A stretch of 50,678 nt of DNA from Candidatus Nealsonbacteria bacterium (GTDB lineage Bacteria; Patescibacteriota; Minisyncoccia; Minisyncoccales; PWPS01). The position numbers were made by a program, and so were the translations under genes. Position 1 is the first letter of the stretch. Every line of letters begins with the position of its first letter. Below, one piece after another: positions 768-50,678 of the stretch. Under the pieces are notes generated by a model. The model was not told where the DNA came from. It made no database searches and saw nothing but the letters and a program-made list of their open reading frames with translations. The DNA is taken from the NCBI GenBank assembly GCA_003560095.1, contig PWJI01000010.1:1-50678 (forward strand), written 5' to 3'.

Positions 768-2648
768 TTAATCAAGAAAAACAAAATCGAGTTGCCTTAG
801 CTCAATACTCCCCCCTACAAGCTTAACCTTGACTTTATTTCCAAGTGCATAACGCTTTCTTTTTCTTGTTCCGATAAGCGCATAATTCTCTTCATCTAAT
901 ATATAATAATCATCATCCATATCTCTTACCGAAACCAATCCTTCTGCTTTTGTTTCTATTTCTTGAATAAAAACCCCTGCATTGTTAACTCCCGAAACAA
1001 TAGCATCAAAAACATCTCCCACTCTTTCAAGCATATACTCTACCTGCTTATAAGAAATAGAAGCTCTTTCGGCATCAAGGACATCAAGCTCTGTTAAAGA
1101 TATTTCTTGGGCAATTTTTTCGTAACCACTGGTATTTATTTTTTCTCCCTTAATCTTTTTTTTAACTATTCTGTGCATTGAAAGATCTGCATATCTTCTT
1201 ATCGGTGAAGTAAAGTGCATATAATTTTTTAGAGCCAGTCCAAAGTGTTTTTTATTTTTTGTAGAATAAGCAGCTTTGGCCATCGATTTTAAAACTGTCT
1301 TCTTTACCAAATACTCCTCATCTCTTCCTTTTATTCTTCTCATTAATTCATTTAGTTCGCTGGAAGATATCTCTTTTTCTTTCATATTGATATTAAGTCC
1401 AAAATTAGAAAGAAAAGAAAGTAAATCATCTATAATTTTTTTATCAGGATTTTCATGAATACGGTAAAGAGTGTTAAATTTTTCCGAAACTTTTTCATTT
1501 GCCAAAACCATAAACTCTTCAATCAAATTATGAGTAAAGAGATGTTCTTTTCTATAAACAGAAACAGGTCTTCCGTCGTGATCGAGCTTAAAGTAAAGCT
1601 CATCATCTTCAATCAAAAGAGCTCCTTTTTCTGTTCTTTTCTTTTTCCTTTTCTTTGCCATCTCTTCAAGCACCAAAAGTTCTTCGATAAACTCCCCTTT
1701 CTTACTATCAAGAACAAGCTGTGCTTCTTTGTAGTTAAATCTTTTTTGTGAACGAATAACCGTTTCCCCAAACCAACTATTTAAAACCTCACCATTTTTT
1801 TTCATCCTAAATACAGCAGAAAAAGCAGCCCTGTCTTCTTTGGGCTTTAAGCTGCAAATATCGTTGGAAAGTACTTCGGGAAGCATAGGAATGGTTCTGT
1901 CAACTAAATAAATAGAAAATGCTCTTTTTCTGGCTTCTTTGTCAAGAATGGACCCTTCGGAAATATAATACGAAACATCAGCAATATGAACCCCAACCTC
2001 ATAAATGTCTTTATCTATTTTTTTAAGAGAAAGAGCATCGTCAAAATCTTTTGCGTCTTCAGGATCTATGGTAAAAGTTGGTATTCCTCTAAAATCTTTT
2101 CTTTTTTGATAATTAACAATTTTTTTCTTTGCTTTTTTGGCATCCTCCTCTACTTTTCGAGGAAAATCAACCGACAAACCTTTTTCTAAAACTATAGAAT
2201 GAAGTTCTGTATCGTTATCGCCCTTTTCCCCAATAATATCAATGATTTTACCCTCCGGATTTTTTTTATTATCTTCCCATTTAGTTATTTCAACAAGAGC
2301 TTTAACCCCTCCCTTTGCATCACTTTTGGGAATGAAAATATCAACATACATCTTAGGGTCATCAGGAACAAGAAAAGCAAAGCTTTTTCCTTTTTTTCTT
2401 TCAATGGTCCCTACAAATCTTTTTTTTGCTCTTTTTATTATATTAACAACCTCTCCCTGTCTTCTCTCTTTCTTTTTTTGAGGAAGCAAAATAATCTCTA
2501 CTTTGTCATTGTGAAGAGCTGTATTTAAAAGAGAAGATTCTATTTTAACATCTTCCTCCAATTCATCTACACTCACATATCCCGATCCAAGAGAATTGAT
2601 ACTTATAATTCCTTTAATTTTTTTTGACATAAATTTATAATTTCTCAA
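768..2648 (-). CDS. rnr: exoribonuclease R / RNase II family (RNB catalytic domain plus C-terminal S1-like domain)
   Basis: 626 aa. It has the RNB signature region FTIDPEDAKDFDDALSL, then HIADVSYY, IYLVDRTIPMLPE, HFGLALKNYMHFTSPIRRYADL, and a C-terminal S1-like VFDAIVSGVNNAGVFIQ. The true start may be the second Met (MSKKIKG, 2630). Confidence 0.9.
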   Translation of the reverse strand: MRNYKFMSKKIKGIISINSLGSGYVSVDELEEDVKIESSLLNTALHNDKVEIILLPQKKKERRQGEVVNIIKRAKKRFVGTIERKKGKSFAFLVPDDPKMYVDIFIPKSDAKGGVKALVEITKWEDNKKNPEGKIIDIIGEKGDNDTELHSIVLEKGLSVDFPRKVEEDAKKAKKKIVNYQKRKDFRGIPTFTIDPEDAKDFDDALSLKKIDKDIYEVGVHIADVSYYISEGSILDKEARKRAFSIYLVDRTIPMLPEVLSNDICSLKPKEDRAAFSAVFRMKKNGEVLNSWFGETVIRSQKRFNYKEAQLVLDSKKGEFIEELLVLEEMAKKRKKKRTEKGALLIEDDELYFKLDHDGRPVSVYRKEHLFTHNLIEEFMVLANEKVSEKFNTLYRIHENPDKKIIDDLLSFLSNFGLNINMKEKEISSSELNELMRRIKGRDEEYLVKKTVLKSMAKAAYSTKNKKHFGLALKNYMHFTSPIRRYADLSMHRIVKKKIKGEKINTSGYEKIAQEISLTELDVLDAERASISYKQVEYMLERVGDVFDAIVSGVNNAGVFIQEIETKAEGLVSVRDMDDDYYILDEENYALIGTRKRKRYALGNKVKVKLVGGSIELRQLDFVFLD

Positions 2649-2687
2649 TATTTTTTAAGTATAAACAATCTTTTTTTCTCAAGCAAA

Positions 2688-2762
2688 CAAAAAAAGGGAT
2701 AATTCCCTTTTTTACAAGTTAACCCTAAAACAGAAACCCCCCTAAAAAAGAGGGGGCCTCTT
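2688..2762 (-). terminator. two tandem hairpins downstream of the cold-shock gene
   Basis: Hairpin 1 is CCCCCT (2738-2743) / AGGGGG (2751-2756). Hairpin 2 is AAAAAGGGA (2691-2699) / TCCCTTTTT (2705-2713), with A/T runs on both sides. Confidence 0.55.
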
Positions 2763-2764
2763 TT

Positions 2765-2959
2765 TTAGGCGCGAGAAACGTTTGCTGCTTTTGGTCCTTT
2801 GTTAGAAGAAGCAACTTCGAAACTCACTTTATCTCCTACCTTAAGATCATCGAATCTTACATCGACAAGGTCATTAGAGTGAAAAAAGAGATCATCTTCT
2901 CCTTCTCTCTCAATAAAACCAAAACCTCTTTCGGTAAGTGTTTTAATTGTACCTTCCAT
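2765..2959 (-). CDS. csp: cold-shock protein (CspA family, single CSD)
   Basis: 64 aa, MEGTIKTLTERGFGFIEREGEDDLFFHSNDL... It carries the RNP1-like GFGFI and RNP2-like LFFH motifs typical of CspA. Confidence 0.9.
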   Translation of the reverse strand: MEGTIKTLTERGFGFIEREGEDDLFFHSNDLVDVRFDDLKVGDKVSFEVASSNKGPKAANVSRA

Positions 2960-3079
2960 TTAAAGTAAATTTTGCTTATTTAATAATTCCCATAAAAGGG
3001 AAAAGTGACAGAAACCCGACCCCATTTCTCCACGTTACGCCCTTAAGAGTACATTATTTTAATTACTTTGTCAATTTAT

Positions 3080-3727
3080 CTATAATCCTGCAAGCAAAGA
3101 AGAGGCTATTCCTGTTAAAAAAATTGCATCAAGTAACCCTGCCCCTCCAATAGAAACAACTCCACTGCCTTTTCTCATTGCCCAAGGAAGATAAAGAAGG
3201 TCTGCCCCAATCAAAACCCCAAAAACACCCGCTGAAAAAGCTACTTGAGGCGCACTTTCAGGAGAAAGCAAAACAGCAAAAAACGCAGAAAATAAAATAG
3301 GTAAAGTCATAGACACAAATACTCCTTTTGTCTTAACAAACTGAGCTCCCAAAAAAGAAAAAAAAGAAACAATAACAGTTGTGGCAAGTAGAGCCTCAAA
3401 AGGAGCATTATAAGCAAAATATCCGGCAATTAATATTGGAATAACAGCTCCTCCGATATTTACAGAAACTCCCTGAAACCTCCAAGCATTTCTTTTAAAT
3501 ATTCCAAAAAAATAAGCCTCTCTTACTTTTACAAGGCTACGCTTCCCTAAGGGTATATTAATAAAGGATCCTATAATAATTAAAAAAAGAAGAGGAAGTA
3601 TTTCTTTAAGAGAAAGTTCTAAAAAACTAAGCCCCGCCCCTGTCAAGTAAAAAAACAAACCTCCCACAATAAAAGGAGAGATTAATACTAAAATTATTAT
3701 AAAAATTATAAGATAAAAAACTGCCAT
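3080..3727 (-). CDS. polytopic integral membrane protein (possibly DUF1614-like)
   Basis: 215 aa with about 6 hydrophobic helices and an NIGGAVIPI motif. The family call is from memory only and is weak. Confidence 0.4.
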   Translation of the reverse strand: MAVFYLIIFIIILVLISPFIVGGLFFYLTGAGLSFLELSLKEILPLLFLIIIGSFINIPLGKRSLVKVREAYFFGIFKRNAWRFQGVSVNIGGAVIPILIAGYFAYNAPFEALLATTVIVSFFSFLGAQFVKTKGVFVSMTLPILFSAFFAVLLSPESAPQVAFSAGVFGVLIGADLLYLPWAMRKGSGVVSIGGAGLLDAIFLTGIASSLLAGL

Positions 3728-3728
3728 T

Positions 3729-4328
3729 TTATTCCCAAGTCACAACAAACCGATGAACTTCACTATCATCTTTTAATGCACAACTTTCTTCACGACATCT
3801 TCCCTTTTTTCCCGTTACAAAGAAAATTAATTGCTCAAAAAAACCTTCCAAATGCAAGCAATAATCGGGATGACCTTTAAAATTATGTATTTCAGTTACT
3901 ATTTTTTTGTTTTCTTCATCTATTTGCGCAACCTTAAAGCTTCCCGCGTTTTTATGATATCTTTCCCAAGCCTCTTGAGAATTATTGCAAATAGTTTTTA
4001 TAGAAATAAGAAACCTGCTCGCAAATTTTATAATAAAGGAGGCTTTAGCCGAATCTCTGCCCATTTCTCTCATTTCCTCATCGCTTAAATTAAAAAATTT
4101 TCTCGATAGAACAAGAAAAGTTAAATAAGAAGAGATAGGAACTTCCTTTGTTTTTTTATAGTCAAAAACATTTATATTGTTTCTTTCCAGTTCTTTTTTT
4201 AGTTCTTCTAATTTTTCTTTTCCAAATTTTCTCTCAATAAATTCCATATCATCAAAAAAACCACGCACAGAATATTTCCCGGTTTCTTTGTTTATACTGT
4301 CTTTATCTTTTTCCGTTAAACTTAACAT
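3729..4328 (-). CDS. cytoplasmic protein with a C-terminal V4R-like (4-vinyl-reductase type) small-molecule-binding domain
   Basis: The C-terminus HPDYCLHLEGFFEQLIFFVTGKKGRCREESCALKDDSEVHRFVVTWE matches the V4R pattern C-x3-G-x12-20-C-x-E-x2-C-x-5-10-F. I place the start at ATG 4328 (MLSLTEKD...). The ORF-track start at 4370 is a TTG inside a promoter-like element. Confidence 0.45.
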   Translation of the reverse strand: MLSLTEKDKDSINKETGKYSVRGFFDDMEFIERKFGKEKLEELKKELERNNINVFDYKKTKEVPISSYLTFLVLSRKFFNLSDEEMREMGRDSAKASFIIKFASRFLISIKTICNNSQEAWERYHKNAGSFKVAQIDEENKKIVTEIHNFKGHPDYCLHLEGFFEQLIFFVTGKKGRCREESCALKDDSEVHRFVVTWE

Positions 4329-4360
4329 AAATAATTCTTTAATGTTGTAGCAATGTCTAT

Positions 4361-4369
4361 ATTGTAGCA
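4361..4369 (-). promoter_or_regulatory. extended -10 element TGCTACAAT (minus strand) upstream of the V4R-like gene
   Basis: Plus-strand ATTGTAGCA is the reverse complement of TGCTACAAT. A second near copy (TGCTACAAC) lies at 4344-4352. Confidence 0.35.
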
Positions 4370-4411
4370 ATAAATAAGAAAAAGAAAAGTTTTTATTATT
4401 TTTTTAAGCTA

Positions 4412-4420
4412 TGCTACAAT
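4412..4420 (+). promoter_or_regulatory. extended -10 element TGCTACAAT, 6 nt before the ATG of the antiporter gene (leaderless-type arrangement)
   Basis: TG-C-TACAAT at 4412-4420 and ATG at 4427. There is no SD in the 6-nt gap. Confidence 0.4.
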
Positions 4421-4426
4421 TGAAAA

Positions 4427-5716
4427 ATGGAAATTGCAACAGCTATTATTTCCGTAGGTATTCTTGTTTTTCTTGCACACTTCTTTGCATGGCTTTTTGG
4501 TTTCGTAAGAATACCCGATGTTTTAATGCTCATGTGTGTGGGTATCTTTATTGGCCCAGTAACTGGAATTGTTGCTCCCGACTTTTTAGGTGATGCAGGA
4601 GATATAATTATCATGCTTATATTGGTAATGATTCTTTTTGAGGGATCTGTAAGATTAAAAATTGAATCTCTTCAAAACTCCATACTTAGAACATTCGGAC
4701 TGGCATTTACTAGTTTTTTTCTTTCAATGATTGCGATAGGTTTTGTATTGTGGCAACTTGCAAACCTTCCTGCAATTCCCTCTTTTTTGATAGGTGCTAT
4801 TGTAGGAAGCAACTCAACCGCTATTGTTATTCCACTTATACAAAAAATGAAAATCAAAGAGGATTCAAGAGCAACCCTGGTGCTAGAGTCCGGGCTAAGC
4901 GATGTACTAAGCATAATTTTCACCCTTGCACTTATCTCCTCTCTCGAGATAGGCTCTTTTCACTTAAATTCCGTAGCCGAAGATATTTTTATGATCTTTT
5001 TAATATCGGCGATTATTGGAGGAATTTTTGCTCTTTTGTGGTCGCTTTTTTTAAACAAAATACACAACATTAAAGACTCTGCATTTACAACTCCTGCTTT
5101 TGTTTTTATTGTTTTTGGAGTAACCGATCTTCTTGGGTATGGAGGTTTTATCGCTGTTATTGTTTTTGGGATTGTTTTAGGCAACATCCCTATGCTTATT
5201 TCATCCCTTAAAGAAAAGCATAAATATCTTTACACCTTTCTTCATCCTCAGCCATTATCTACCAGAGAGCTCTCTTTTTTTCGGGAAATAGTTTTTTTGG
5301 TAAAAATATTTTTCTTTATTTTTATAGGAATATCTTTAAACTTTCAAGACACATCTGTTATGTTTCTTGGATTATCTCTCGCAATGCTTCTTTTCTTAAT
5401 TAGAATTCCTGCAATACTATCAACCATCTCAAACACTACGCCAAAATTTGACGCTTCCATTATGGCAGTAACCGCTCCAAGAGGATTAGCACCTGCAGTA
5501 TTGGCTCTTATTCCAATACAAAGAGGACTTGAAGGAGGACAATTAATACAAGACATTACTTATTCAGTAATTTTCTTCTCTATTCTTTTCGCTTCACTTC
5601 TCATATTCCTCCTCTATAATACAAAAATAAGAAACATTTACGAGTTTCTTTTGCCAAAATTCGCATCTAACCCAAAAGAAGGAAGTCGCGAATATCCCAA
5701 AAAAGAGGAAAAATAA
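4427..5716 (+). CDS. cation/proton antiporter, CPA1 (NhaP-type Na+/H+ exchanger) family
   Basis: 429 aa with about 11-12 TM helices. The N-terminal pattern LAHFFAWLFGFVRIPDVLMLMCVGIFIGP and the ESGLSDVL motif are typical of Na_H_Exchanger family proteins. Confidence 0.8.
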   Translation: MEIATAIISVGILVFLAHFFAWLFGFVRIPDVLMLMCVGIFIGPVTGIVAPDFLGDAGDIIIMLILVMILFEGSVRLKIESLQNSILRTFGLAFTSFFLSMIAIGFVLWQLANLPAIPSFLIGAIVGSNSTAIVIPLIQKMKIKEDSRATLVLESGLSDVLSIIFTLALISSLEIGSFHLNSVAEDIFMIFLISAIIGGIFALLWSLFLNKIHNIKDSAFTTPAFVFIVFGVTDLLGYGGFIAVIVFGIVLGNIPMLISSLKEKHKYLYTFLHPQPLSTRELSFFREIVFLVKIFFFIFIGISLNFQDTSVMFLGLSLAMLLFLIRIPAILSTISNTTPKFDASIMAVTAPRGLAPAVLALIPIQRGLEGGQLIQDITYSVIFFSILFASLLIFLLYNTKIRNIYEFLLPKFASNPKEGSREYPKKEEK

Positions 5717-6214
5717 TTATATCTCACAACCAACCTCTCTTGCCAAAATATTAATGTCTCTGCTTCCTTCGTAGAGACTACCGTCTATTTGAATTTCGGG
5801 AACAAACCCGGTAACTTTTTCTTCATTGCACCGATCAACATCCTCCATGCACTCAACATAAAGATCGCCCATTTTTTCATACCCTCCAAAGCTAGCTGCA
5901 AGACTTGCGCAGGCAGGGCAAGTTTCCGAACCATAAACAACAACATCATTTTTTTCCAAGCAATCAATAATCTCTGACAAATCTTCGTCATCTTCTATTG
6001 GTTTCTTGTCTAATTCTGTCTCCTCCATAGATTCCTTTCTTTCTTGACTAGACTCCTCTTGTCTTTCTGTCCCTATAACATCATTGCTTTCTTCTTGATG
6101 ATTGTAGTCACCCGAAAAAATAACAAGATAAAGAGAACCTGTAATTAAAAACGCTCCAATTAAAATTGATAGTACTGTTTTATTTCCTTTGTTTGAATAA
6201 TCTATTTTTTTCAT
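5717..6214 (-). CDS. membrane-anchored extracytoplasmic thioredoxin-like protein (CPAC active site)
   Basis: After a TM anchor and an acidic linker comes VVVYGSETCPACASLAASFGGYEKMGDLYVECMEDVDRCNEEKVTGFVPEIQIDG. This resembles the Trx-like domain fused to bacterial VKOR (YGA-x-WCPHC..ELFG..YVEC....C....I.GYPTW). The start is taken at the MKKIDYSN ATG at 6214; the ORF track extends to 6274. Confidence 0.65.
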   Translation of the reverse strand: MKKIDYSNKGNKTVLSILIGAFLITGSLYLVIFSGDYNHQEESNDVIGTERQEESSQERKESMEETELDKKPIEDDEDLSEIIDCLEKNDVVVYGSETCPACASLAASFGGYEKMGDLYVECMEDVDRCNEEKVTGFVPEIQIDGSLYEGSRDINILAREVGCEI

Positions 6215-15538: not shown

Positions 15539-15964
15539 TTAAAAACTACACGAAGAAAAATTTTCTATCTCTTTTATTGTGAGTACTCCTCTTACTTTCT
15601 CTCCTTTTTTGGGGAAATTCCATGTAGGAAAATTTTTTATTTTTTTAGCTTGACACTGAAAAGAAAGCTCTTCTTTTTCTGATTCAATACAATTAAAGTA
15701 AAGAAAATCTGCTTCATTTCCAAGGATATTTTTTTGCAGCTTAGTGGAGTCATCTTTATCGGATCCATAAAATTTTACCCCCTCCTCTTTTAGACAAAGA
15801 TAAAAATATTTTAGATCTTCTTTTCGATTTACGTTTTCTCTTTGATAAAGCGCTGCAAAAGAAAAATCACCAAAACCTTCTTCTGTTTGGGTATCTAATA
15901 AAATTAATAAAGAAACACTCACCAAAAAAAATATAAATATTTTCAAAATAATTTTTTTTCTCAT
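15539..15964 (-). CDS. thioredoxin-like paralogue lacking the CxxC active site
   Basis: VKFYGSDKDDSTKLQKNILGNEADFLYFNCIESEKEELSFQCQAKKIKNFPTW aligns with the two Trx-like proteins, but CxxC is replaced by DDST. The flanking structural Cys (LCLKE.., NC..C, ..SCSF) are retained. It overlaps the upstream gene by 4 nt. Confidence 0.5.
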   Translation of the reverse strand: MRKKIILKIFIFFLVSVSLLILLDTQTEEGFGDFSFAALYQRENVNRKEDLKYFYLCLKEEGVKFYGSDKDDSTKLQKNILGNEADFLYFNCIESEKEELSFQCQAKKIKNFPTWNFPKKGEKVRGVLTIKEIENFSSCSF

Positions 15965-17403
15965 TGCTCGGAAGAAAATATCTTTTCAAATTGATCCATT
16001 TTGTTGTAAACTTGAATAGTTTTTAGATTATACAACTCTTTTACATCTTGGTAAACCCCATATTCGGTTCCTCTTGCCGCTTTATATCCAGCACTTTCTA
16101 CTCTATCTAAAACTTCATAATTTAAAGCACCGTAAGGGTAAGCAAAAAAATCAATACTTACATCCAGTTTTCTTTGGAAAAAGTCCCTACTTCCAACTAT
16201 TTCAATTAAGAGACCTTCTTTACCTTCTTTGCTTAAATTGGGGTGATTCATGCTATGAGAACCTATTTCCATTCCATGCTCTATTAGCTCATTAACGTTA
16301 TTCCAATCCATGAACATTCCTCCTCCAATATAATTTCCAACCAAAAAAAACGTTGCTACAAAATCATATTCCTTAAGTACCGGAAAAGCATTTTCGTATT
16401 GATTCTTCCACCCGTCATCAAAGCTAATAATCAAATAATTTTCCGGAATCTCTTTGCCGTTATTTAAAAGATCTATAAATTTCTCAAAAGTAATCGGATT
16501 GTAGTTATTTTCATAAAGATATTTCATTTGCTCTTTAAACATAGAGGGGGTTACTGTTAAGTCTTTCCACTCCTTGCTGGCATCTTCAGGAAGATCTTCT
16601 ATGTGATGATACATTAAAATAGGCATTCTCAAGAAAGAAGACTCGTTCGTTTTTTTTCTTAAAGTAAAATAATTCTCACTTCTTTTTTTAATTAAATCAT
16701 CATTCCATATATACTCTATTTTTATTTTTACTTCTTTTTTTTCTGGAAGCACTTCTTTCGGAAACCACAAAAAATTCTCTAAAGAGCAATCTACATTTTT
16801 TTTAATTTCTTCTTTTTTATTTTCTTCACTTATAATATAAAAATCAATAGTTTCCTGTTTCATTTGAGAGGGGCAAGTCCATTTTATCTCATAACCTTCT
16901 CCGATAAAAACATTTTCTTTCACAGAAGAAGAAAAAAATATTTCAGGATAACTACTGCTTCCCGTAACCTCTTTCTCTTTTGCCACTTCTTCCTTCAAAG
17001 AGCTTTCTTCAAAAAACATTTTCAGCTCTCTTTTAATACTATCTTCCTTTCTGGCAACTTCTAAATTCTTTTCGTGCTCTTTATGGCTTAAAAAAACAAT
17101 AACACCTCCCCCCAAAAAAAAGACAATTAAAAAGCCTGTCAAAAATAAAATAATTTTATCAAGCCTTTCTTTTTTAAATTGATTATTTTCTCTTAGGGGG
17201 TTCGCTTTTTCTTCTTTTTGAATTATATTTCCACTTATTATTTTATCGAGAATTTCTTTGGAAGAAGTATTCCCCTGTTCTTTTCTAAGAAGAGCATCTC
17301 TATTTATTTCACTTTGTTTTATAATTTCTTGCAAAATAATATCATCAGAAAATCCCGCCTTTCTTGCTCTTTCTATAAATTCTATGATATTTTTTTCTTG
17401 CAT
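15961..17403 (-). CDS. type II membrane protein with a C-terminal polysaccharide deacetylase (NodB/CE4) domain and the shared N-terminal cytoplasmic module
   Basis: CE4 motifs are MPILMYHHI, ISFDDGW and GSHSMNHPNL. The TM lies around aa 84-106. The N-terminus is IIEFIERARKAGFSDDIILQEII..SSKEILDKII. Confidence 0.8.
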   Translation of the reverse strand: MQEKNIIEFIERARKAGFSDDIILQEIIKQSEINRDALLRKEQGNTSSKEILDKIISGNIIQKEEKANPLRENNQFKKERLDKIILFLTGFLIVFFLGGGVIVFLSHKEHEKNLEVARKEDSIKRELKMFFEESSLKEEVAKEKEVTGSSSYPEIFFSSSVKENVFIGEGYEIKWTCPSQMKQETIDFYIISEENKKEEIKKNVDCSLENFLWFPKEVLPEKKEVKIKIEYIWNDDLIKKRSENYFTLRKKTNESSFLRMPILMYHHIEDLPEDASKEWKDLTVTPSMFKEQMKYLYENNYNPITFEKFIDLLNNGKEIPENYLIISFDDGWKNQYENAFPVLKEYDFVATFFLVGNYIGGGMFMDWNNVNELIEHGMEIGSHSMNHPNLSKEGKEGLLIEIVGSRDFFQRKLDVSIDFFAYPYGALNYEVLDRVESAGYKAARGTEYGVYQDVKELYNLKTIQVYNKMDQFEKIFSSEQ

Positions 17404-17420
17404 ATTATAAAAATATTAAT

Positions 17421-19046
17421 TTACCCTCCAAACAGATTTTTCATCATTTCATCCCACCTATTATCAATAGAGGCTCCTATATTTATAAGATCATTACACC
17501 TTTCTTTAAAAATTTTAACATTTTCTTTTGCCCGAAAATTTTCATTAACACCTTTAATCGCCAAATCAAATTCTTCCAGCGCATTTTTACATTTTTTTTC
17601 ATGCATAAAGTAAAGCCCTCTTTTAAAATGATTATAATAATCTCCCTTACTTTCCTGAGAAAAAATGTCACTCATTTCTTTAAATAGATTAATTGGAATG
17701 GCACGAGAAAACGAATCTCCCGTCATCCCTTCCATCTCGGGTGTTCCTACTGAAAGTATTGCAATGACCTCTCCGGCTTCATTGATAATAGGGCTTCCAC
17801 TAGATCCCGGAGAAGCTTTTGCATCTGTTTCAATATAATCAAACTGCCCCTTTGGCTCTGTTTTTAGGGCAGTAATAACTCCGGAAGTAAAAGAAGGTCT
17901 CAAATAACTTCTTCCAATTCTTATGCTTGGAAAAATGTTTGCCTTTTTGAAATTTCCTCTCATGAAATTATGCCTTGTGTCCATTATTCCGCTAGTCGCA
18001 GGAAATCCAAAATTATAAATAGAGCCCCCTATCCTTGCCGAGCTTGAATCACCCAAATAAGCAGCTGGGAGATTTTCTTCTTCTATCTTTATAAGAGCCA
18101 CATCTTTGTAATTGTAAAACCACTCTAAGTCAAATTCTAAAATTTCAAAAGGAAAACCCTCTTGTGTTAATTCATTTATCCTTTCGCTTTCAGAGGAAGG
18201 ATTAAAAACTATTCCCTTTTCTTGAACATCAAAGCTCATTACGTTTAAAATCCCTTCTATAGAAGCCCTCATCATGTTTGCAGCTTCTTGAAAGTCAGCT
18301 TCTTGAAATACCTCCTCCACTCTTTTCTCAACTCTCTGAGCCTCCTCATGTCTTCCCTCCCAAATAAGGTTAATTTGCTCTTCCATTATCGCAGAAGCAA
18401 AAATTTGAAGTGCCAGAGACTTCTTAATATAATCACTATTTACAACATGAGCATTTGTTAAAATAAGTCCATGAGGATCAACAACAAAACCGGTTCCTTC
18501 CCAATAAATTTCCTCAAGCGGAAGAACACTGGTCTCTCCGGTAAAAGATCTAGTCACGTGAAAATTTTCTAAATTTATATTAAAGGGTTCAATTTCAACA
18601 TTTCCACTAATAGCATAGCCAATTTTAACAACCGAGGGCTCAATAATTCCGGCAACCTCTGATCTACTCAACTGAAAATTGGCAAAATCTCTTTCGGTTA
18701 TTTCTTTTGATAAAGGAGTGCGAAAATAAAAAAATAAAAAAGCAAACACTCCTCCAAAAAATAAAAATGTCCCCAAAAAAACATATTTTAATTTGCTTTT
18801 TAAGGGAGCTTTAATATTTCCCGAAAAAGGTTTTAGAAGAGAATAAGGATTGCTTTCTTCTTTTTTGTCTTGAATTATTTCATCAAGAATCTCTCCTTCT
18901 TTTAGCCCTCTTTTTTCTAAGATATTAAAAAAAGATAGCTTTTTAGGATTTTTGTTTTTTATTATTCTTACTATTTCCTCATCGCTTACGCCTCTTTCCC
19001 TTGCCTTTAAAATTGCCTCAGCAATATTTTTTTTATTTTTACTCAT
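17421..19046 (-). CDS. type II membrane trypsin-like (S1C/HtrA-like) serine protease with the shared N-terminal cytoplasmic module
   Basis: GTGFVVDPHGLILTNAHVV carries the His, KDVALIKI the Asp and GSSGSPIINEAGEVIAILS the Ser. The TM lies around aa 88-108. The N-terminus is IAEAILKARERGVSDEEIVRII..KEGEILDEII. A TPR-like helix pair sits at the C-terminus. Confidence 0.75.
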   Translation of the reverse strand: MSKNKKNIAEAILKARERGVSDEEIVRIIKNKNPKKLSFFNILEKRGLKEGEILDEIIQDKKEESNPYSLLKPFSGNIKAPLKSKLKYVFLGTFLFFGGVFAFLFFYFRTPLSKEITERDFANFQLSRSEVAGIIEPSVVKIGYAISGNVEIEPFNINLENFHVTRSFTGETSVLPLEEIYWEGTGFVVDPHGLILTNAHVVNSDYIKKSLALQIFASAIMEEQINLIWEGRHEEAQRVEKRVEEVFQEADFQEAANMMRASIEGILNVMSFDVQEKGIVFNPSSESERINELTQEGFPFEILEFDLEWFYNYKDVALIKIEEENLPAAYLGDSSSARIGGSIYNFGFPATSGIMDTRHNFMRGNFKKANIFPSIRIGRSYLRPSFTSGVITALKTEPKGQFDYIETDAKASPGSSGSPIINEAGEVIAILSVGTPEMEGMTGDSFSRAIPINLFKEMSDIFSQESKGDYYNHFKRGLYFMHEKKCKNALEEFDLAIKGVNENFRAKENVKIFKERCNDLINIGASIDNRWDEMMKNLFGG

Positions 19047-19052
19047 AGAGCC

Positions 19053-20294
19053 CTAACCCTTAATACATCTAACAGAAAGACCGCTTTCTAAAATAAGCGG
19101 TATCCTTTTTATCTCCGGATAACCGGAATAAAGCATCCTTACGAAAGCAGAAGATTCTTTTTTAGTAGACGTCCAAAAACCTGTTCCAATATCAATTCCA
19201 TTAAATTCTCCGCTGGGCTCTCTTCCCCCGGCAGGCAGAGCAGAAAAGTTACTTATATCACTACCATCCCACTCTTCTGACTTTATTTTTTCACCTTCAT
19301 TTGAACCTCTCCACTTAATTTCGTTTGCTTGTGTTAAGCTCATTCCAAGAGCTCTTTCCATTTCCCTAAACTCTTCATCGGTTGGTAATCTCCATCCCCT
19401 AGGACAAACATCTACGGCATCATTGTAATTATATAGTCGCCCATAAGAATCACAATTTTCTTCTTGATTTTCATAACACCAACTTTCATCCGTTTCATAA
19501 TTCAAATTTTCTGCCATCCAGCAATACCGTCCAATTTGTACAATATCATATCTTAAATTATTTCTATGATCGGTATGCGTACTAAGTCCTTCACAAGGAT
19601 TACCATTTGCAAAAGGCAATTCTTCCTCACCTTCCTCTTCTTCTTGAGTGTCTTCTTCGTCTTCTGTGCTCTCTTGTGGTATATCATGACACATTCCGTC
19701 ATACCAATAAAAACCATTTTCTAAGCACTCTTCTTCATTTTCAATGTTTTCAAGAGAAATATCGTTGTCTTGCTGATCCTCTTCCTCTCCTTCTTCCTCT
19801 TGTTGCGGAGTTTCATAACACATTCCGTTATACCAATAAAAACCATTTTCTAAGCACTCTTCTTCATTTTCAATATTTTCAAGAGAAATATCTTCCTCTT
19901 TCTGTGGATCCTCATGACACATTCCGTCATACCAATAAAACCTTTTTTGTGCACACTCTTCTCGAGTCTCAATAGTGCTTGGATCATCGTCTCTGTCTTC
20001 TCCTACTTCTTCATGACACATTCCGTCATACCAATAAAAGTTTCTTTCTATACACTCTTCCTCGTTTCTAATTTCTTGTGCGTCAATATCCGGCAAAGGG
20101 TCGTAATGACATTTATTCTCATACCAATAAAACCCCTCTTCTTCACAGCGCTCCTTGTTTTTAATATTTTCAGGTATGGCATCTCTTCCATTTTCAAAAG
20201 AAGAATCCTCTCTTCCCGTAAAAAGCATTATAATTATCCCAAAAAAGAGTAGAAAAAAGCCTATACCTATAATTATTATTGTTTTTTTACTCAT
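19053..20294 (-). CDS. anchored surface protein: five C-x3-G-F-Y-W-Y-x3-C repeats plus a C-terminal Fib_succ_major domain
   Basis: The repeats are CEEEGFYWYENKC, CIERNFYWYDGMC, CAQKRFYWYDGMC, CLENGFYWYNGMC and CLENGFYWYDGMC. The C-terminus (19056-19559) has GRYCWMAENLNY, YGRLYNYNDA, CPRGWRLPTDEEF, FSALPAGG, GFWTST and SVRCIKG. Confidence 0.75.
   Translation of the reverse strand: MSKKTIIIIGIGFFLLFFGIIIMLFTGREDSSFENGRDAIPENIKNKERCEEEGFYWYENKCHYDPLPDIDAQEIRNEEECIERNFYWYDGMCHEEVGEDRDDDPSTIETREECAQKRFYWYDGMCHEDPQKEEDISLENIENEEECLENGFYWYNGMCYETPQQEEEGEEEDQQDNDISLENIENEEECLENGFYWYDGMCHDIPQESTEDEEDTQEEEEGEEELPFANGNPCEGLSTHTDHRNNLRYDIVQIGRYCWMAENLNYETDESWCYENQEENCDSYGRLYNYNDAVDVCPRGWRLPTDEEFREMERALGMSLTQANEIKWRGSNEGEKIKSEEWDGSDISNFSALPAGGREPSGEFNGIDIGTGFWTSTKKESSAFVRMLYSGYPEIKRIPLILESGLSVRCIKG
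19685..20147 (-). repeat. in-frame tandem coding repeats (period about 105-130 nt) encoding the Cys-hairpin motif
   Basis: 19685-19764 and 19814-19893 are 80-nt copies differing at 4 positions by my alignment. More diverged copies start near 19912, 20021 and 20105; all contain ATACCAATAAAA (the reverse complement encodes FYWY). Confidence 0.8.
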
Positions 20295-24958: not shown

Positions 24959-27079
24959 TTAAGGCCTTAAAACACAGCGAACATGATAATATTCAAAATC
25001 TTTATCTCCGTAAAGACTTTCCCCTGAAAAAAAGTTTAACTTTCTTGCTTGCATAAAAGAACTTTCGGTAGAAGACCAATAAAAATTAGGAGTTGCGTTA
25101 TAGTCCCAGTAAGGAGCACAAGGTTCTCCCTGAAATTTACTCTCGCTTTTTAGACAATTTTCATAAAATTTTTCCAGTGTTCCTATGGCAGGCAAATACC
25201 AGTCATCTCTACCGGCATAGCTTAGCTCATTACAAGCATATGCTGCCATATTTTTTTCGGGGCAACTGGCATCTATTATTGCTTGATTGTTTTCTTTTTC
25301 TTTTTCATAATGATTGGCTCCGACATAATCTTCTTTGCATCCCCATTGATACTGAGAAGCAGGAAATTCATCAGCTGGAAGACTAAGTGTAGGAGTCCAT
25401 AAATTAAGATCAAAATCGCAATAAACTGTCTCTCCTTCAATTTCTATGCTTACATCCTTATGCTCTTTGCGCGTACAAAATTTACTTAAATCTCCAAGAA
25501 TAATTTTTGTACATATATTATTAATGCACTCGTGTCCGCTTGGACAATCTCCATAGTTGTGTCTTAAAATACAATTCCTGCTCTCTTTTGAGTGGCCAAC
25601 ACAATCGCTTCCTCCATATTCCGGCTTGGGATTATTACACTCTCTTGTTCTTGTTTTTTGTCCATACGCAGGAGCTTCCCCACACATTGCTCCACCGTCG
25701 TGCTCGATTACACAATCACTCCAATCACTCCACTCTCCCCAACCTCCATCCACCGGGACCATTTCTCCATAGCATTCATTTTCATGCCACTCATAGCCCA
25801 TCTCCTCACATTCTAATTTTGAAGTAAGAACATCGGGAGAGGGAAAATCAGAAAAACAAGCTCCATTATACCAATAAAATTTATTTTCTTCGCATTCTTT
25901 TTTAGATAAAATATTTTCAGGAGAAATTTCTTTCATTCTTTCTTCTTTTGGCATTTCATAACATCCTCCTTCGTACCAATAAAGACCCTCCCTTTCACAT
26001 ATATCTTGGATAGTGAGTCTTTCTATTCTTTGAGCAGTATCTATTGAAAACCAAGTAAAAAACCCAATGATAAAAATAATAGAAAAGAAAGAGAATATTA
26101 TTATTGAAAAAGCAACTTTTTGATTAATTTCTTTTCCAAGTATTTCAATTACTGATTTTTTTCTTTTTTGTTCTTCCAAGAAATAATGTTTTTCGTCTTG
26201 ACCAACTGCTTTATCTTCTTCAAAAAAATCTTCTTTTCCTTCTTTTGGCTCTTTCTCTTCTTCTTTTTCTGAAGGTTTTTCTTCAATAATCCTCTCCTCT
26301 AAGCGTTCTTTTTTCTTATCATCTTCTTTTTGCTTAAGTCCCATTTTTCTAATTCTTTCTTTTATATCTAATCTTTCCAATTCTTTTTCTCTTCTTTTAT
26401 CTTCTAACTCCCATCTTTTCTTTATGATTCTTATTCTTTTTTTAATATCTTTTTCTTGCTTTGCCTTTAGCTCAATCTCATCCTTTTCTTTTTTGATTGA
26501 TTCTATTTCACCACTAATTGAGAGTAGTCTTTTGCTTAGTTTTGTTCTATCTTCTTTTGTTTTTGCCTCTTTGTGTTCTTCTTTTTCTGTCAAAAAACTT
26601 TCTGCCTCTTTTTTTTCTTCCTCTTTCGCTTTCTTTCTTATTTTTTCTATTAATTCTCTTTCATTTTCCTCTTCCTTTGTATTCTTTTTTTTCTCATCCC
26701 TTTTAGTTGATTTATTTAAAATCATATCAACCTTTCCCCCTATTTCATCAAGATTAAATTTAGCCACTATAAAATAGTTTTCCGCTCCATATTTTTTAAT
26801 CTTTTCTATGTCTTCTTTGCTTCCCACATTGGAAGCAGCAATTACCGGAATGTCAGAAATATCCTTTCTTTCTTTTATCTTTTTTAAAAAATCAAAATTA
26901 TTTTTTTTGAACCCCTCCGTGCTCGCCAAAATAAGGGCGGGATAAATTTCTTTTATTTTTAAAAACGCCTCTTCTTCTGTTTTTAAAAGAAAAGCACCAT
27001 AGCCCATCTCTTTGAGCTTGTTTTTTAAAAGCTCTCCTACTTCTTTATTATTTTCAACAATAATTACTTTTTTAGCCAT
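24959..27079 (-). CDS. type II membrane protein: degenerate receiver domain, K/E-rich coiled coil, TM, three Cys-hairpin repeats, a TSP1 repeat, a small Cys knot and a DUF1566-type domain
   Basis: 706 aa. The TM is [23 protein letters not shown] (aa 322-344, 26048-26116) with basic residues on the N-side. See the sub-features. The C-terminus has [23 protein letters not shown] and [10 protein letters not shown] (DUF1566 / Lcl C-terminal-like pattern). Confidence 0.7.
25571..25747 (-). other. thrombospondin type-1 repeat (TSR) coding segment
   Basis: [59 protein letters not shown]. Codon positions were verified on the DNA (W447 = 25739-25741, C503 = 25571-25573). Confidence 0.75.
26720..27079 (-). 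other. receiver (CheY-like) fold domain lacking the acidic phospho-acceptor pocket
   Basis: Aligned by eye to CheY, KVIIVENN replaces the DD pair and ALILAST puts Ser at the D57 position. PVIAASN retains the T87-equivalent Ser and YFIVAKF retains the K109-equivalent Lys. Confidence 0.6.
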
Positions 27080-37027: not shown

Positions 37028-38995
37028 CTATCTTAAAACACAACGAACATAATGAAAAGGAAAATTCTTTTCTTCAGAAGAGATATCCCCTGAGTAGAAA
37101 TTAAGCCTTTGTGCAGAAAAAGAATCAGACTCGGTAGAAGACCAATAATAGCCATTAATCGCATTATCATCCCACGAAGGCTTGCAAGGACCACTAGTCC
37201 CACCCCCTTGATTAATTAAACAATCTCTATAAAGATCATTTACTCTATTTATAGACGGCAAGGCCCAGTTTTGCTTTCCTCCATAACTTAGATTAGCACA
37301 TACAACTGCGGCACTAATTTCATCAGCACAATCACTATTTTTTATTAATTGTGTGTTGTTTCCATCATACATCTCAGAAGAAGCACCTACCTCTTCGCCA
37401 TAACAGCCCCATTCATATGCAGTAGAGCTTTCTGTTGTTGCAGGCAGTCGCAAAGTGGGTGTCCAGATATTAAGTTCCAAGTCACAATAAACCAAATCTC
37501 CCCCTATAAAAGAGCTTGTACTTTTATGCTCTTCTATTGTGCAAAATTCAGCAGGCTCTTCTGGGGGCGCGAAAGTAACTTCGGTGCAAATATTATTAAT
37601 ACACTCATACCCATCCCAGCAACCACCAAAATACCTGTCAACAAAACAAGTTTCAGTTTCTTCTGAAGAGCCTTCACATTCTTTTCCTCCATACTCCGGC
37701 TTAGGATTATTACATTCTCTGCTTCTAGATCTTTTTCCCTCCATTCTAATGCTTCCACAATCAAATGACCTTTCATCTACAACCTTGCACTCGCTCCAAG
37801 CACTCCAATTACTCCATCCACCATCTATCTTAATGGGTTCTTTTTGACACACATCTTCCTGCCAATAATATCCTGCTTCTATGCACCTTTCTTTAGAATC
37901 AATTTCTTCTAAAAAATCATCTTCCTCGTTTTCCTCTTCTTCCTTCTTCTTTTCTTCCTTTTCTTCCTTTTCTTCCTCAATGTATTGCTCTATTTCCTGA
38001 GAATCATCTTCTTGTTCTTTGAAAAAAATTTCCTCATAAGGATTTACTTCTGTCACATATGCTGCATCTTCTTCTTGAGAGTATTGAAAATTAAAATCAT
38101 TAAAAATAAAGAAATAAAGAAAAACTACTCCTACTCCAAAAATTCCTCCCATCAAAAGAAAAATTATTTTACTTTTTACAGTCAATTCCTCTCTTTTTTC
38201 ATCGTCATAAGAATTGTCTTTTGAAAAATCATTACCTCCTTTATTATTAGAAGAAATATCGGGGACTAATTCTTCTTTTTCTTCTTCTTTAGGAGAAGTG
38301 TTTTTTTCTTGAAGAGGTGGAGTAGTTTTCTCTTGTTCTATCTCCTCTTTACTGCTTTCGTAAGGCTTTTTTTTGAAAGATTTTATATCTTTCTTGTTTA
38401 CAGCAGAAAAAGATTGTTTAAAATTCAAAATTTTAAGAAGCTCTTCTTGTTTTTTGTCCTTAGGAGGTGGGGTGATTTTCTCTTGCTCTATCTCCTCTTT
38501 GCTACTTTCATAAGAATTATCTTCCAAAGAATCAGTGTCTTCTTTTTTGGAGGGAATATCGGAAGCTAATTCTTCTTTTTCTTCTTCTTTTTTTTCTTGA
38601 GCAGAAAGATTTTCTTCTGGATGACCTTTTTCCTGAAAAGATGAAGTGGCTTTCTCTTGCTCTATCTCCTCTTTGCTACTTTCATAATATTTATCTTCTA
38701 AAGAATCTGTAACTTTTTTGTCAGAAAGGGTGTCAAGGGCCAGTTCTTTATTCTTTTCTTCAGTAGAAAAATTTTCTTCTGGATAATCTTTTTCTTCTTT
38801 TTTTTCTTTTTTGTTTTGCCTAATTATTTCTCCTATAATTTGTTCCGGACTAAACCCCATCTCCTGAGCACGCTTAAAAGAACTTTCTCTTTCCGGCAAA
38901 TTTTCCCTAATTTCTTTCAAAAGAAGTTCGTCACTCTTGCCCTCCTCCTTTGCCTGTAAAATAAAATTTAATATATCTACTTTATTATTGCTCAT
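37028..38995 (-). CDS. type II membrane protein: shared N-terminal module, repeat-rich acidic cytoplasmic region, TM, Cys hairpin, TSP1 repeat, Cys knot and a DUF1566-type domain
   Basis: The start is taken at ATG 38995 (MSNNKVDIL..); the ORF track extends to 39037 and would overlap the upstream gene. The TM is [22 protein letters not shown] (38102-38170). The C-terminus has [24 protein letters not shown] and FHYVRCVLR. Confidence 0.7.
37646..37825 (-). other. thrombospondin type-1 repeat (TSR) coding segment, second copy
   Basis: [61 protein letters not shown]408 was verified at 37814-37816. Confidence 0.75.
38256..38700 (-). repeat. imperfect in-frame coding repeats ([12 protein letters not shown] x3, EEEKEEL-x-DI-x-S x2)
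   Basis: ATATCGG..CTAATTCTTCTTTTTCTTCTTCTTT occurs at 38256-38290 and 38556-38590. TTTCTCTTG(T/C)TCTATCTCCTCTTT occurs near 38327, 38477 and 38651. Confidence 0.75.
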
Positions 38996-48632: not shown

Positions 48633-50678
48633 TTAATTGTCTTTTATGCATCGCACTGACATGCCATCGGCTTGAGGATGAGCATAACGATGAATACCAA
48701 CACCATCACGATGAATAAAACGAAACCAAGGAAGACCTCCTGACAAAGAAGATGTCCACCAAAGAGCACCGCTATTAGCAAATTGAAGTTCGTCAAAAGT
48801 AGTACGATAACCTCCGGGAAGAGCTGTAAAATTAGAATAATTATTACCTCCCCAATCTGCGGTTTTCATTCTTGTTCCGGCAGGGTCACACCCCCAATAC
48901 TCTCTATCGGGAAGACAGCTTCCGGTAGCAAGCTCTCTTTCTAGAATATGCCATTCACTATCGCTTGGCACTTTCCATCCTTCCGGGCAAACTCCTTGAG
49001 CTCCTTCTTGTCTTGATCCATCCATGACAGCTCCCCATTGATATAAAACTCCATCGTATCCTCCTCCTTGAGCAGCACAAGCATTGTAGGGTGCTCCTGT
49101 TGTCCATTCATTATTAGTACATCCTGAATCATAACGTAAATCTTCGCCAAACCAGCACTGATTGCCAATTTTCACCGTTTTATATCTTTCACCGTCTCTA
49201 TTGTCAACAAAAGAATCACCACATGTAAAATCTTTTTCTTCATCGGGATCAGGATCCGGGTCAGGTCTTGGGTCAGGTTTTGGATCAAAAGGAACTGTGC
49301 CATCAGCTTCTTTAGCAATATCTTTATAACGCTCAAGATCAGCGTCCGTAATAGGGCGTCGCATCATACGAATAGATTTATAACAAAAATCACAAATTTC
49401 TGTTGGTTGTTGTGCTCCATAAGTCAGATATATCCATTTCTTACCACCCTCTTCTTTAACAAAAGCCTCAGGAACATGATTTGCTTGCACGTCACTATCA
49501 TGCCTAATATATCCAAGTAAAGCCCAATCCTCTCCATTAACAGAAATTGCTTCGACTATTTTTCTTCCCGGCCATCCTTCGCCATATCCCACAGGATCAG
49601 CATAAGCAAAATAAATATCATCTATACGAATTACATTTGGATTGGGATAATTAACAATAAGAGGATTATCTAAGCCTCTCTTAATATTCCAATCATTAAT
49701 GTTATAAAAATCACCATGATTTTCAGCATAAAGCATTGAAATAGTTAAATCATGGATACCGTCAAACCATAATCTGTACACTCCATCTTCATACATAAGC
49801 GAAGGACGAAGATACATTCCCTCAGGGTGAAAATGACAATCTGGGTCTTCTGAGCTTATTGGTTTTTGACCAATATTATCCTCATAAATTAAAATAGGCT
49901 CCTTAGTACGAGTCCAATTAATTCCATCACTTGAATACGCACCCATCACAGAACTAAGGTCCGAATCAGTATCATCGTCATGACAAGCAGGAACACCATC
50001 TATATTGTGCCCGCTAGCACTGTAAGCCATATAATAAGTTCCATCAACTCTAATAACCGAAGGATCTCCAGTGTGCCACTCATCAAAAATATTATCACCA
50101 CCATCAATTACCGGAACCCATTTACTGGGCGTCATTGTCTTATCCCACTGAAAAATACCATTTTGTGTTCCACTATAAACCTCCCAAGGGCCATCTATTT
50201 TTGGTGCTCGAGCTGCAAAAATAGCATCACAGCCATCATATAGAGGATTGCAGATTTCACTAGCCCAACCAAAGAACCAGCCTTTAAACGGATAATCTGT
50301 ATCTTCCGAAGTATGAAGAATATCCAAATTATACATATTTTTAAAATTGTAGAGTAAATCTCCACCAATATGACTCCATAGCTCGGTACGCTCTACATAT
50401 CGTCCCGGTTTAAGGTCATCTGAGAGCTTGAACTTAGAATCAGGATCAGGATCTGGCTCTGGTTCAGGTTCAGGATCTGGCTCTGGTTCAGGTTCAGGTT
50501 TTTGATCTTCAATTATTTTACTGAGCTTTGCTCTCGTTGAGGGCCCTACAAATCCTGTTCCTTGTGTTAGGTTAAAAGGAGAGAGTACTTCTTCTTTGTA
50601 CTTTTCTTGAAATCTTTTTACAGCTTCCTTGGTTAGGTTTCCAAAGTAATCGGTTTCGTTTCCGGGAGAGCCGTATCC
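48633..50678 (-). CDS. secreted PG_binding_1 domain, PE linker, beta-propeller glycosidase-like domain, PD linker and Fib_succ_major domain (5' end beyond the window)
   Basis: The frame stays open upstream of the ORF-track Met (50336) to 50678, reading [52 protein letters not shown]. The propeller has [18 protein letters not shown] and [10 protein letters not shown]. The C-terminus (48636-49229) has [44 protein letters not shown] and SVRCIKDN. Confidence 0.7.
50441..50500 (-). repeat. 24-nt tandem repeat encoding the Pro-Glu/Pro-Asp linker
   Basis: CAGGATCTGGCTCTGGTTCAGGTT at 50447-50470 is repeated exactly at 50471-50494, with partial copies flanking. Confidence 0.8.

Follow-up and report, generated by a model that had tools for sequence, protein, structure and literature searches.

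Three genes of the window begin with a common module

The 50,678-nucleotide stretch of Candidatus Nealsonbacteria DNA analysed here (hereafter the window) carries three genes, all on the minus strand, whose products begin with a related segment of about 56 residues, termed here the module. An original prediction, made from the letters of the DNA, had proposed that these proteins share an N-terminal cytoplasmic module followed by a transmembrane (TM) helix and then by unrelated ectodomains. The open reading frames (ORFs) and N-termini are present as quoted, and Pfam confirms that the outer parts are unrelated: one protein is a CE4 polysaccharide deacetylase (PF01522), one a trypsin-like S1 protease (Trypsin_2), and the third matches TSP_1 (E = 2e-4) and Lcl_C (E = 8e-8) (Table 1). 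The genes for the protease and the deacetylase are adjacent. The mechanical ORF of the TSP1/Lcl_C protein begins at a TTG codon at position 39037 (minus strand) and overlaps the stop of the upstream gene (39018); the alignment of family members, together with the upstream stop codon, indicates that the ATG at 38995 is the real start.

The TM helix that was expected is found in each protein. It does not directly follow the module; the two are separated by E/K/S-rich linkers, the longest of which belongs to the TSP1/Lcl_C protein. This linker includes a 12-residue peptide that occurs three times at irregular spacing within 38327-38686 (minus strand), for which Tandem Repeats Finder reports no array.

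Table 1. Module-bearing genes of the window and their parts (positions in the window; residue numbers are those of each protein).
Feature	Position	Strand	Evidence
Deacetylase gene, module-TM-CE4 polysaccharide deacetylase, 480 aa	15961..17403	-	ORF; PF01522 Polysacc_deac_1, E 1.5e-27
Module copy 1, deacetylase residues 5-59	17227..17391	-	family HMM, 47.8 bits, E 4.6e-13
Deacetylase TM helix, residues 81-99	17107..17163	-	hydropathy scan; K+R 5 on N-flank, 2 on C-flank
CE4 deacetylase ectodomain, residues 320-442	16078..16446	-	Pfam PF01522
Protease gene, module-TM-S1 (trypsin-like) protease, 541 aa	17421..19046	-	ORF; PF13365 Trypsin_2, E 1.4e-23
Module copy 2, protease residues 7-61	18864..19028	-	family HMM, 59.0 bits, E 1.4e-16
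Protease TM helix, residues 88-106	18729..18785	-	hydropathy scan; K+R 4 on N-flank, 3 on C-flank
Trypsin_2 protease ectodomain, residues 184-430	17757..18497	-	Pfam
TSP1/Lcl_C protein gene, module-long linker-TM-TSP1/Lcl_C, 655 aa from ATG 38995	37028..38995	-	ORF
Module copy 3, TSP1/Lcl_C protein residues 8-62	38810..38974	-	family HMM, 62.2 bits, E 1.5e-17
TSP1/Lcl_C protein cytoplasmic linker, 214 aa, low-complexity	38168..38809	-	E 21%, K 19%, S 12%
TSP1/Lcl_C protein TM helix, residues 277-295	38111..38167	-	hydropathy scan; K+R 4 on N-flank, 0 on C-flank
TSP1 (residues 395-450) and Lcl_C/DUF1566 (residues 561-653) ectodomain	37037..37813	-	Pfam

The module represents an unnamed domain family

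When the first 75 residues of the three window proteins were compared pairwise by BLASTP, 29-38% identity was observed over 64-69 residues. Smith-Waterman scores among the three N-termini are 64, 71 and 103, against 27-29 +/- 5-6 for composition-preserving shuffles (2000 per pair). The corresponding z values are 6.1, 8.1 and 13.8, and the observed score was reached by 1, 0 and 0 shuffles. The N-termini thus align far better with each other than with shuffled sequence of the same composition. A hidden Markov model (HMM) of the three copies, run against all six reading frames of the window, detected no fourth copy, and a search of these frames for a single-unit copy of the module likewise found none.

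Further members are abundant elsewhere. An exhaustive HMMER search of 1.84 billion protein cluster representatives with a seven-sequence profile (alignment A2) reached E <= 1e-3 for 187 representatives, of which 105 had E <= 1e-10. The original prediction had named an HMM search without further members as grounds for its rejection, and this outcome did not occur. When module profiles were instead run through a word-indexed search, alignment A1 gave nothing and A4 only four short fragments, since so short a query is penalised by an E-value scaled to 5.8 billion sequences. Full-length orthologues of the window protease (P0002-P0005, 35-40% identity) keep the N-terminal module. Against a family HMM derived from 151 members in the database, canonical members reach 80-98 bits, and the three window copies match over their full length with the scores listed in Table 1. 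On this measure of sequence the window copies are divergent members of the family, and the second half of the deacetylase copy is degenerate.

No match to the module was obtained from Pfam, NCBIfam or PHROGs for the window proteins, their orthologues or canonical members, and a literature search found no description of it. The module therefore stands, as far as sequence comparison goes and in agreement with the original prediction, as a new domain family, with at least 187 clusters, which is absent from the libraries and literature searched. Such a family could be deposited in Pfam and would annotate cytoplasmic parts of proteins that are now unlabelled.

Profile searches of the PDB with alignments A1, A3 and A4 returned only de novo designed helical repeats. 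The best sequence matches (dTor_3x33L, 4yy2; DHR4, 5cwb; O43 cages; E = 0.005-0.1) have in common with the module a grammar of helix, G-x-S/T and N-capped helix, and a repeat of about 28-33 residues. Because those proteins are artificial, the likeness reflects idealised helix capping and not ancestry.

These matches to idealised repeats, along with the K/E/I-rich composition of the window proteome, are what might be expected if K/E/I-rich helical N-termini merely resembled one another by chance and no real domain existed. Set against this are the shuffle z values of 6-14, the 105 database matches at E <= 1e-10, position-specific conservation of up to 97% and a confident AlphaFold2 (AF2) model of the module (see below). 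Chance similarity is therefore excluded, and the three N-termini are shown to be divergent copies of one real, so far unnamed domain.

Sequence conservation and predicted structure

An alignment of 151 module sequences gives the consensus NIIESIKKARERGASDDQILQEIIKQNPEKASVFQEAKKRGASATQILDEIIKQN. Positions I6, A9, I19, N27, P28 and G41 are 93-97% conserved, and a series of polar positions (R10, D16, E22, Q26-N27-P28-x-K30, E50 and Q54-N55) is conserved at 77-94%. The domain is strongly constrained. When the first half of the family alignment was compared with the second by hhalign, the two matched in register with a probability of 98.2% (E = 5.7e-14). The module is therefore a tandem duplication of a 28-residue helix-turn-helix (HTH)-like unit. 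The unit has the consensus x-S-I-x-x-A-R-x-R-G-A-S-D-x-x-I-L-x-E-I-x-K-Q-N-P. The duplication that had been read from the window copies is thus recovered at the level of the family; within single window copies it is not significant (z = 0.4, 1.8 and 3.3).

In the AF2 models, as in the consensus, each unit consists of a helix, a four-residue G-x-S-D turn and a second helix. The module of the window protease, modelled from a 7-sequence alignment, has helices at residues 8-17, 22-32, 34-45 and 50-63 (predicted local distance difference test, pLDDT, 79.8). For the canonical member P0147, modelled from a 45-sequence alignment, the helices span residues 3-12, 17-27, 29-40 and 45-57, and pLDDT is 90-97 over residues 1-57. 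The turns between the four helices are 4, 1 and 4 residues long, and the models predict that the two units form one compact domain of four helices. Foldseek searches with the module model gave a best E-value of 3.8 against the PDB and none better than 2.6 against BFVD.

The original prediction had likened the unit to helix-extended-helix motifs (SAP, Rho_N, LEM) or to SHOCT. An hmmscan search against Pfam at E <= 10, which covered the three window modules, the modules of their orthologues and the C-terminal tails described below, did not list SAP (PF02037), LEM (PF03020) or Rho_N (PF07498), and no SAP, LEM or Rho chain is among the PDB profile or Foldseek matches. A helix-extended-helix motif needs an extended linker of about 5-7 residues, whereas the turns of the module are tight and four residues long in the AF2 models. 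It also has a basic character, whereas the mean net charge of the module is close to zero and the helix after each turn has conserved Asp and Glu. For SHOCT (PF09851) there is no Pfam match, and SHOCT is positioned C-terminally whereas the module is N-terminal. The proposed kinships are therefore not upheld.

Other named folds were considered and set aside. An (HhH)2 domain needs G-h-G hairpins and five helices, one of them a connector helix; the module has an R-G-A-S-D turn and four helices, and it has no Pfam match to the HHH family. Resemblances to a DivIVA-like 'RGY..EVD.FL' segment and to EF-hand pairs were dropped, since the turns are too short and Pfam gave no match.

There is a formal resemblance to classical HTH and tri-helical domains such as MerR and the RecX repeats. 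Both units carry the turn spacing A-x3-G-x5-[ILV] (A9-G13-I19 and A37-G41-I47, each 87-97% conserved), the helices are short (10-13 residues), and Arg or Lys is conserved ahead of the turn Gly. The best Pfam matches to known HTH families (RecX_HTH2, E = 0.02; MerR-DNA-bind, 0.04-0.09; HARE-HTH, 0.12; HTH_68, 0.15) all fall far short of the cut-offs of their models. These features could be taken to mean that the module is a membrane-tethered nucleic-acid-binding domain of HTH or helix-extended-helix type, which would tie envelope proteins to the nucleoid, to mRNA or to the ribosome, a role that the original prediction had offered among others. However, no HTH, SAP, LEM, Rho_N or SHOCT model matches significantly, and no structural match was found in the PDB. 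The net charge of 151 modules averages only +0.2 +/- 2.2, and the helix that would serve for recognition is acidic in both units (S-D-D-x-I-L-x-E-I), with an N-cap Asp that is 84% conserved. Furthermore, unlike in classical HTH domains, the two units close onto each other as a four-helix domain. Given the charge and the missing profile match, nucleic-acid binding by the module is unlikely, and tethering to nucleoid or ribosome is not supported.

The module lies on the cytoplasmic side of the membrane

The module occupies an almost fixed place at the start of its proteins. Its first conserved Ile lies at residue 5 or earlier in 125 of 150 members and at residues 6-15 in 17 more. Cellular carriers continue with a disordered E/K/P/S-rich linker, which reaches 458 residues among the members, then with a single membrane helix and a variable C-terminal part. 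P0182, P0202 and P0218 depart from this pattern: their module is internal or C-terminal and follows TM segments or lies between them, which reflects either wrongly called starts or genuine exceptions. Another member, P0146 of the PilM group, carries two copies of the module.

Several observations bear on the topology of these proteins. Among members with a single strong TM helix, Lys and Arg are more numerous on the N-terminal flank of that helix in 57 of 62, consistent with the positive-inside rule. Thirteen of the 62 are tail-anchored, with no more than six residues after the TM helix. In the PilM fusions the module precedes a cytoplasmic PilM domain (PF11104, 1e-25; TIGR01175, 3.7e-36), which is followed by a TM helix and SH3 domains. 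Finally, distant homologues of the window protease (P0008-P0015, one of them labelled Doudnabacteria) have the reverse arrangement, in which the catalytic domain comes first, the TM helix lies near the C-terminus, and the protein ends in a tail of the pattern Y-I-x-x-A-R-x-x-G-L-x-D-x-x-I-x-x-x-L-x-K-A-G-W...I..A. This tail matches the first unit of the module by hhalign (94.5%, E = 7.6e-8). An HMM of the tail matches N-terminal modules in return, including the deacetylase copy of the window (E = 4e-5). That a related element is found at whichever end is anchored argues that it stays cytoplasmic in both topologies. Taken together, the charge bias, the PilM fusions, the tail-anchored members and the related tail of opposite-topology proteases show that in cellular carriers the module is cytoplasmic, as had been proposed, and that the variable C-terminal part is outside.

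The Doudnabacteria-type tail is like the module in that it has a homologous first unit, is cytoplasmic, belongs to S1 proteases and has no Pfam name. It differs in being C-terminal and about 40 residues long, with a single unit followed by a third helix that bears G-W. Such an association with one protease family, independent of topology, is unusual.

In other lineages the same cytoplasmic position is occupied by other domains. Two homologues of the window protease carry CxxC...CxxC zinc ribbons after a C-terminal TM helix (P0053, with a match to PF13240/PF13248, and P0064, with Cys motifs). These zinc ribbons, together with the receiver domain of a window protein encoded at 24959-27079, support the view that the module is a cytoplasmic tag that can be exchanged for others. 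Elements of this kind are familiar: the zinc-ribbon tags of single-pass membrane proteins (zinc_ribbon_2, PF13240; zf-ribbon_3, PF13248; DZR, PF12773) are likewise small cytoplasmic domains that lie at a terminus and are combined with many unrelated ectodomains. The comparison is one of analogy. In contrast to these tags, the module is all-helical, has a narrow lineage range and is found on phage proteins as well. It has no metal site; Cys and His are absent from the 56-position consensus, and so is the CxxC...CxxC pattern.

The window protein mentioned above (minus strand, 706 aa) has an N-terminal receiver domain (PF00072, E = 3e-5, residues 5-112), a TM helix at residues 322-340 and a C-terminal Lcl_C/DUF1566 domain at residues 611-703. 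A phospho-receiver at the cytoplasmic end of a surface-type protein is an unusual architecture.

The location of the module at the extreme N-terminus (142 of 150 members), ahead of a membrane or hydrophobic segment in cellular and phage carriers alike, and the existence of 13 tail-anchored members that have no ectodomain raise the question of whether it is a topogenic or targeting element. A fast-folding N-terminal domain could keep the N-terminus in the cytoplasm or recruit an insertion factor, and would so enforce the N-in orientation of type II proteins, tail-anchored proteins and the phage hydrophobic segment. Such a function does not sit well with a related unit that is C-terminal, after the last TM helix, in opposite-topology protease homologues, with PilM fusions that already hold a large cytoplasmic domain before their TM helix, or with linkers of up to 458 residues between module and TM helix. 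The conserved polar surface positions point instead to a specific contact. We consider a topogenic role rather doubtful, although it is the strongest of the alternatives.

Cellular carriers and their gene neighbourhoods

Carriers were grouped by clustering of their non-module parts and by Pfam. The cellular classes comprise S1 proteases (9 representatives), CE4 deacetylases (3 representatives), Fib_succ_major proteins, the TSP1/Lcl_C protein, PilM fusions of the form PilM-TM-SH3 (7 representatives), tail-anchored proteins of about 200 residues with nothing outside, and a class termed family 25 (25 representatives), whose ectodomain of about 230 residues has no assigned domain and no Pfam or PDB relative. 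The original description of a tag on type II surface proteins thus holds for part of the family, which extends beyond them to tail-anchored proteins, to PilM fusions and, for about 40% of members, to phage proteins.

Contigs with cellular carriers are labelled Candidatus Nealsonbacteria or 'uncultured Saccharibacteria', the latter being third-party assemblies. The Nealsonbacteria contigs come from metagenome-assembled genomes (MAGs) of soda-lake sediment (PMC6146748). The cellular carriers are Nealsonbacteria-like candidate-phyla-radiation (CPR) bacteria.

A recurrent gene order is found around family 25. It begins with polynucleotide phosphorylase (PNPase) and one or two K/E/R-rich proteins of 450-1070 residues, followed by an optional tail-anchored module protein and the family-25 module protein. 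Next come a zinc-finger protein of the DksA/TraR type (about 117 residues), an oppositely oriented LysM-M23 peptidase and an RsmA-like gene. In six loci the family-25 module gene is immediately preceded by the tail-anchored one. A search of the window for the family-25/DksA operon showed that it is absent there.

The proteins encoded directly upstream of the tail-anchored or family-25 genes (897-3977 in locus L008, with equivalents in L009-L014 and L005) are very large (959-1072 aa; 700 aa in L005), consist of 50-58% Glu, Lys and Arg, have no Pfam match and contain repeated 'KRRWE..EE.RR..EK.RW' motifs. In the module loci L005 and L008-L014, the DksA/TraR zinc-finger gene always follows within 0-6 bases. 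Elsewhere, a module N-terminus in locus L021 (1249-1452, P0267) stops after 64 residues in a Lys run, whereas the corresponding protein of L026 (5989-7905) continues to 639 residues; the difference is probably a frameshift in a poly-A tract, caused by assembly error or slippage.

Phage carriers

The phage proteins that carry the module have 500-750 residues, and their genes lie in blocks of tail and lysis genes. The members that lack a strong TM helix fall into one cluster of 45 and several small clusters, and every context of such members that was examined is phage-like. In L003 and L004, a SU10_adaptor or tail protein lies upstream of the module gene, tail-fibre PHROGs lie directly downstream and an M23 peptidase is found further on. 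L007 encodes a Peptidase_S74 fibre, SU10_adaptor and CHAP; L033 has an M15 peptidase after the module gene, YopX and many small ORFs; and L035 has SU10_adaptor and Gp80. L020 is an IMG/VR viral contig, and L034 is a short contig of the same phage-like style. In L029 the gene directly upstream (3074-5992) encodes a 972-aa protein with an M23 domain embedded at residues ~684-750, which fits a virion-borne wall-degrading protein, and an endolysin follows the module gene. A search of viral contigs with alignment A5 gave no loci.

The phage carriers are built from the module, a low-confidence hydrophobic stretch rich in Gly and Ala (present in P0147, P0155 and P0204) and a confident helical domain. 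No significant match to these proteins was obtained from PHROGs, Pfam or NCBIfam, tblastn against INPHARED gave none, and the best Foldseek hit of the P0147 model in the PDB has an E-value of 1.1. Their genes are located between the adaptor or nozzle genes and the fibre or lysis genes (L003, L007, L029, L033 and L035), which is the position of podophage ejection-protein genes, and a hydrophobic Gly-rich segment is a further trait of such proteins. Homology to a known ejection protein was not detected with PHROGs, INPHARED or Foldseek. Gene order suggests that the phage carriers are internal virion or ejection proteins comparable to T7 gp14-16.

Apart from generic M23 domains, the module is the only element common to the phage and CPR loci. 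When phage modules were compared with cellular ones by BLASTP, they were 38-57% identical, with E-values down to 5e-16, and overall module identity between the two groups (42-56%) equals that within carrier groups (47-59%). The occurrence of the module on phage tail-region proteins at equal conservation is unusual.

One explanation is that the module is primarily a phage domain, for example a handle for incorporating a virion-internal protein, that was captured secondarily by CPR cells, where what the copies do would be derived or unrelated. Phage proteins make up the largest carrier cluster (45 representatives) and several smaller ones, and the phage loci cover a wider GC range (32-49%) than the CPR loci. 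On the other hand, cellular carriers include the syntenic, core-like family 25, flanked in many MAGs by PNPase and RsmA; the modules do not group in sequence according to their carrier; and a distant C-terminal relative exists in other CPR lineages. A phage origin therefore seems improbable to us.

Proposed role of the module

The reading we prefer, at a probability of roughly 0.55, is that the module has no enzymatic activity and acts, on the cytoplasmic membrane face, as a handle for protein-protein contacts. The handle would self-associate or dock a common cytoplasmic partner, and envelope proteins would be positioned or clustered in this way; phage proteins would rely on it too, perhaps as virion proteins that are ejected or insert into the membrane. 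The module would not be a nucleic-acid-binding motif of the SAP or helix-extended-helix type. A handle fits best because the tail-anchored members are little else and because many polar positions are conserved. These positions argue for specific contact through what may be a conserved functional surface, a view also favoured by a module identity that is as high between phage and cellular carriers as within carrier groups. The clustering of module genes in cells, seen in the tail-anchored and family-25 pair and in the adjacent protease and deacetylase genes of the window, counts for this reading as well.

There are precedents for such an arrangement. Penicillin-binding proteins (PBPs) have minidomains that are bound by GpsB, FtsN interacts with FtsA, and the N-terminus of PilN interacts with PilM. 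In each case the cytoplasmic N-terminus of a bitopic envelope protein docks a cytoplasmic organiser, as is proposed here for the module, and in the case of PilN and PilM the analogy is extended by a carrier class that is itself a PilM fusion. The resemblance is functional. These docking segments are short linear motifs, whereas the module is a folded 56-residue domain, and there is no sequence relation.

Several points weigh against a handle. No partner, oligomeric state or ligand has been observed, and part of the motif reflects the generic helix-capping grammar that makes designed repeats its best PDB matches. A generic handle leaves the near-constant position at residues 2-5 unexplained, and the classical spacing A-x3-G-x5-I in each turn keeps some room for a nucleic-acid role. 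With regard to the phage proteins, the virion or ejection role is drawn from gene order, PHROGs and Foldseek having given nothing, and a shared host partner is conjectural for phage contigs of so broad a GC range.

A more specific and more speculative version, which we regard as no likelier than a phage origin, would make the module the docking handle of a CPR-specific envelope-organising system. This handle would link adhesins, enzymes that modify the wall and the type IV pilus platform to a scaffold in the cytoplasm. Candidates for the scaffold are the K/E/R-rich coiled-coil proteins of 450-1070 residues and the zinc-finger protein of the DksA/TraR type, which share a conserved operon with the tail-anchored and family-25 module proteins. 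Phages of these bacteria would have taken over the handle for a virion protein that is ejected and inserts into the membrane, where it would engage the same host scaffold. If this were true, the module would also mark phage-host pairs.

CPR bacteria, whose way of life is attachment to other cells, rely on their envelope proteins. A folded handle common to proteases, wall-modifying enzymes, adhesin-like proteins, tail-anchored proteins and PilM fusions offers a bait for a cytoplasmic partner. If the hosts of the phages are CPR bacteria, the module is in addition a sequence marker that links uncultured phages to their hosts.

The window is rich in predicted surface proteins that lack the module. 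These are encoded at 19053-20294, 39018-41906, 43254-45554 and 48633-50336, all on the minus strand, and comprise two Fib_succ_major proteins, one Flg_new/GLUG protein of 962 aa and one PG_binding_1/BNR/Lcl_C protein.

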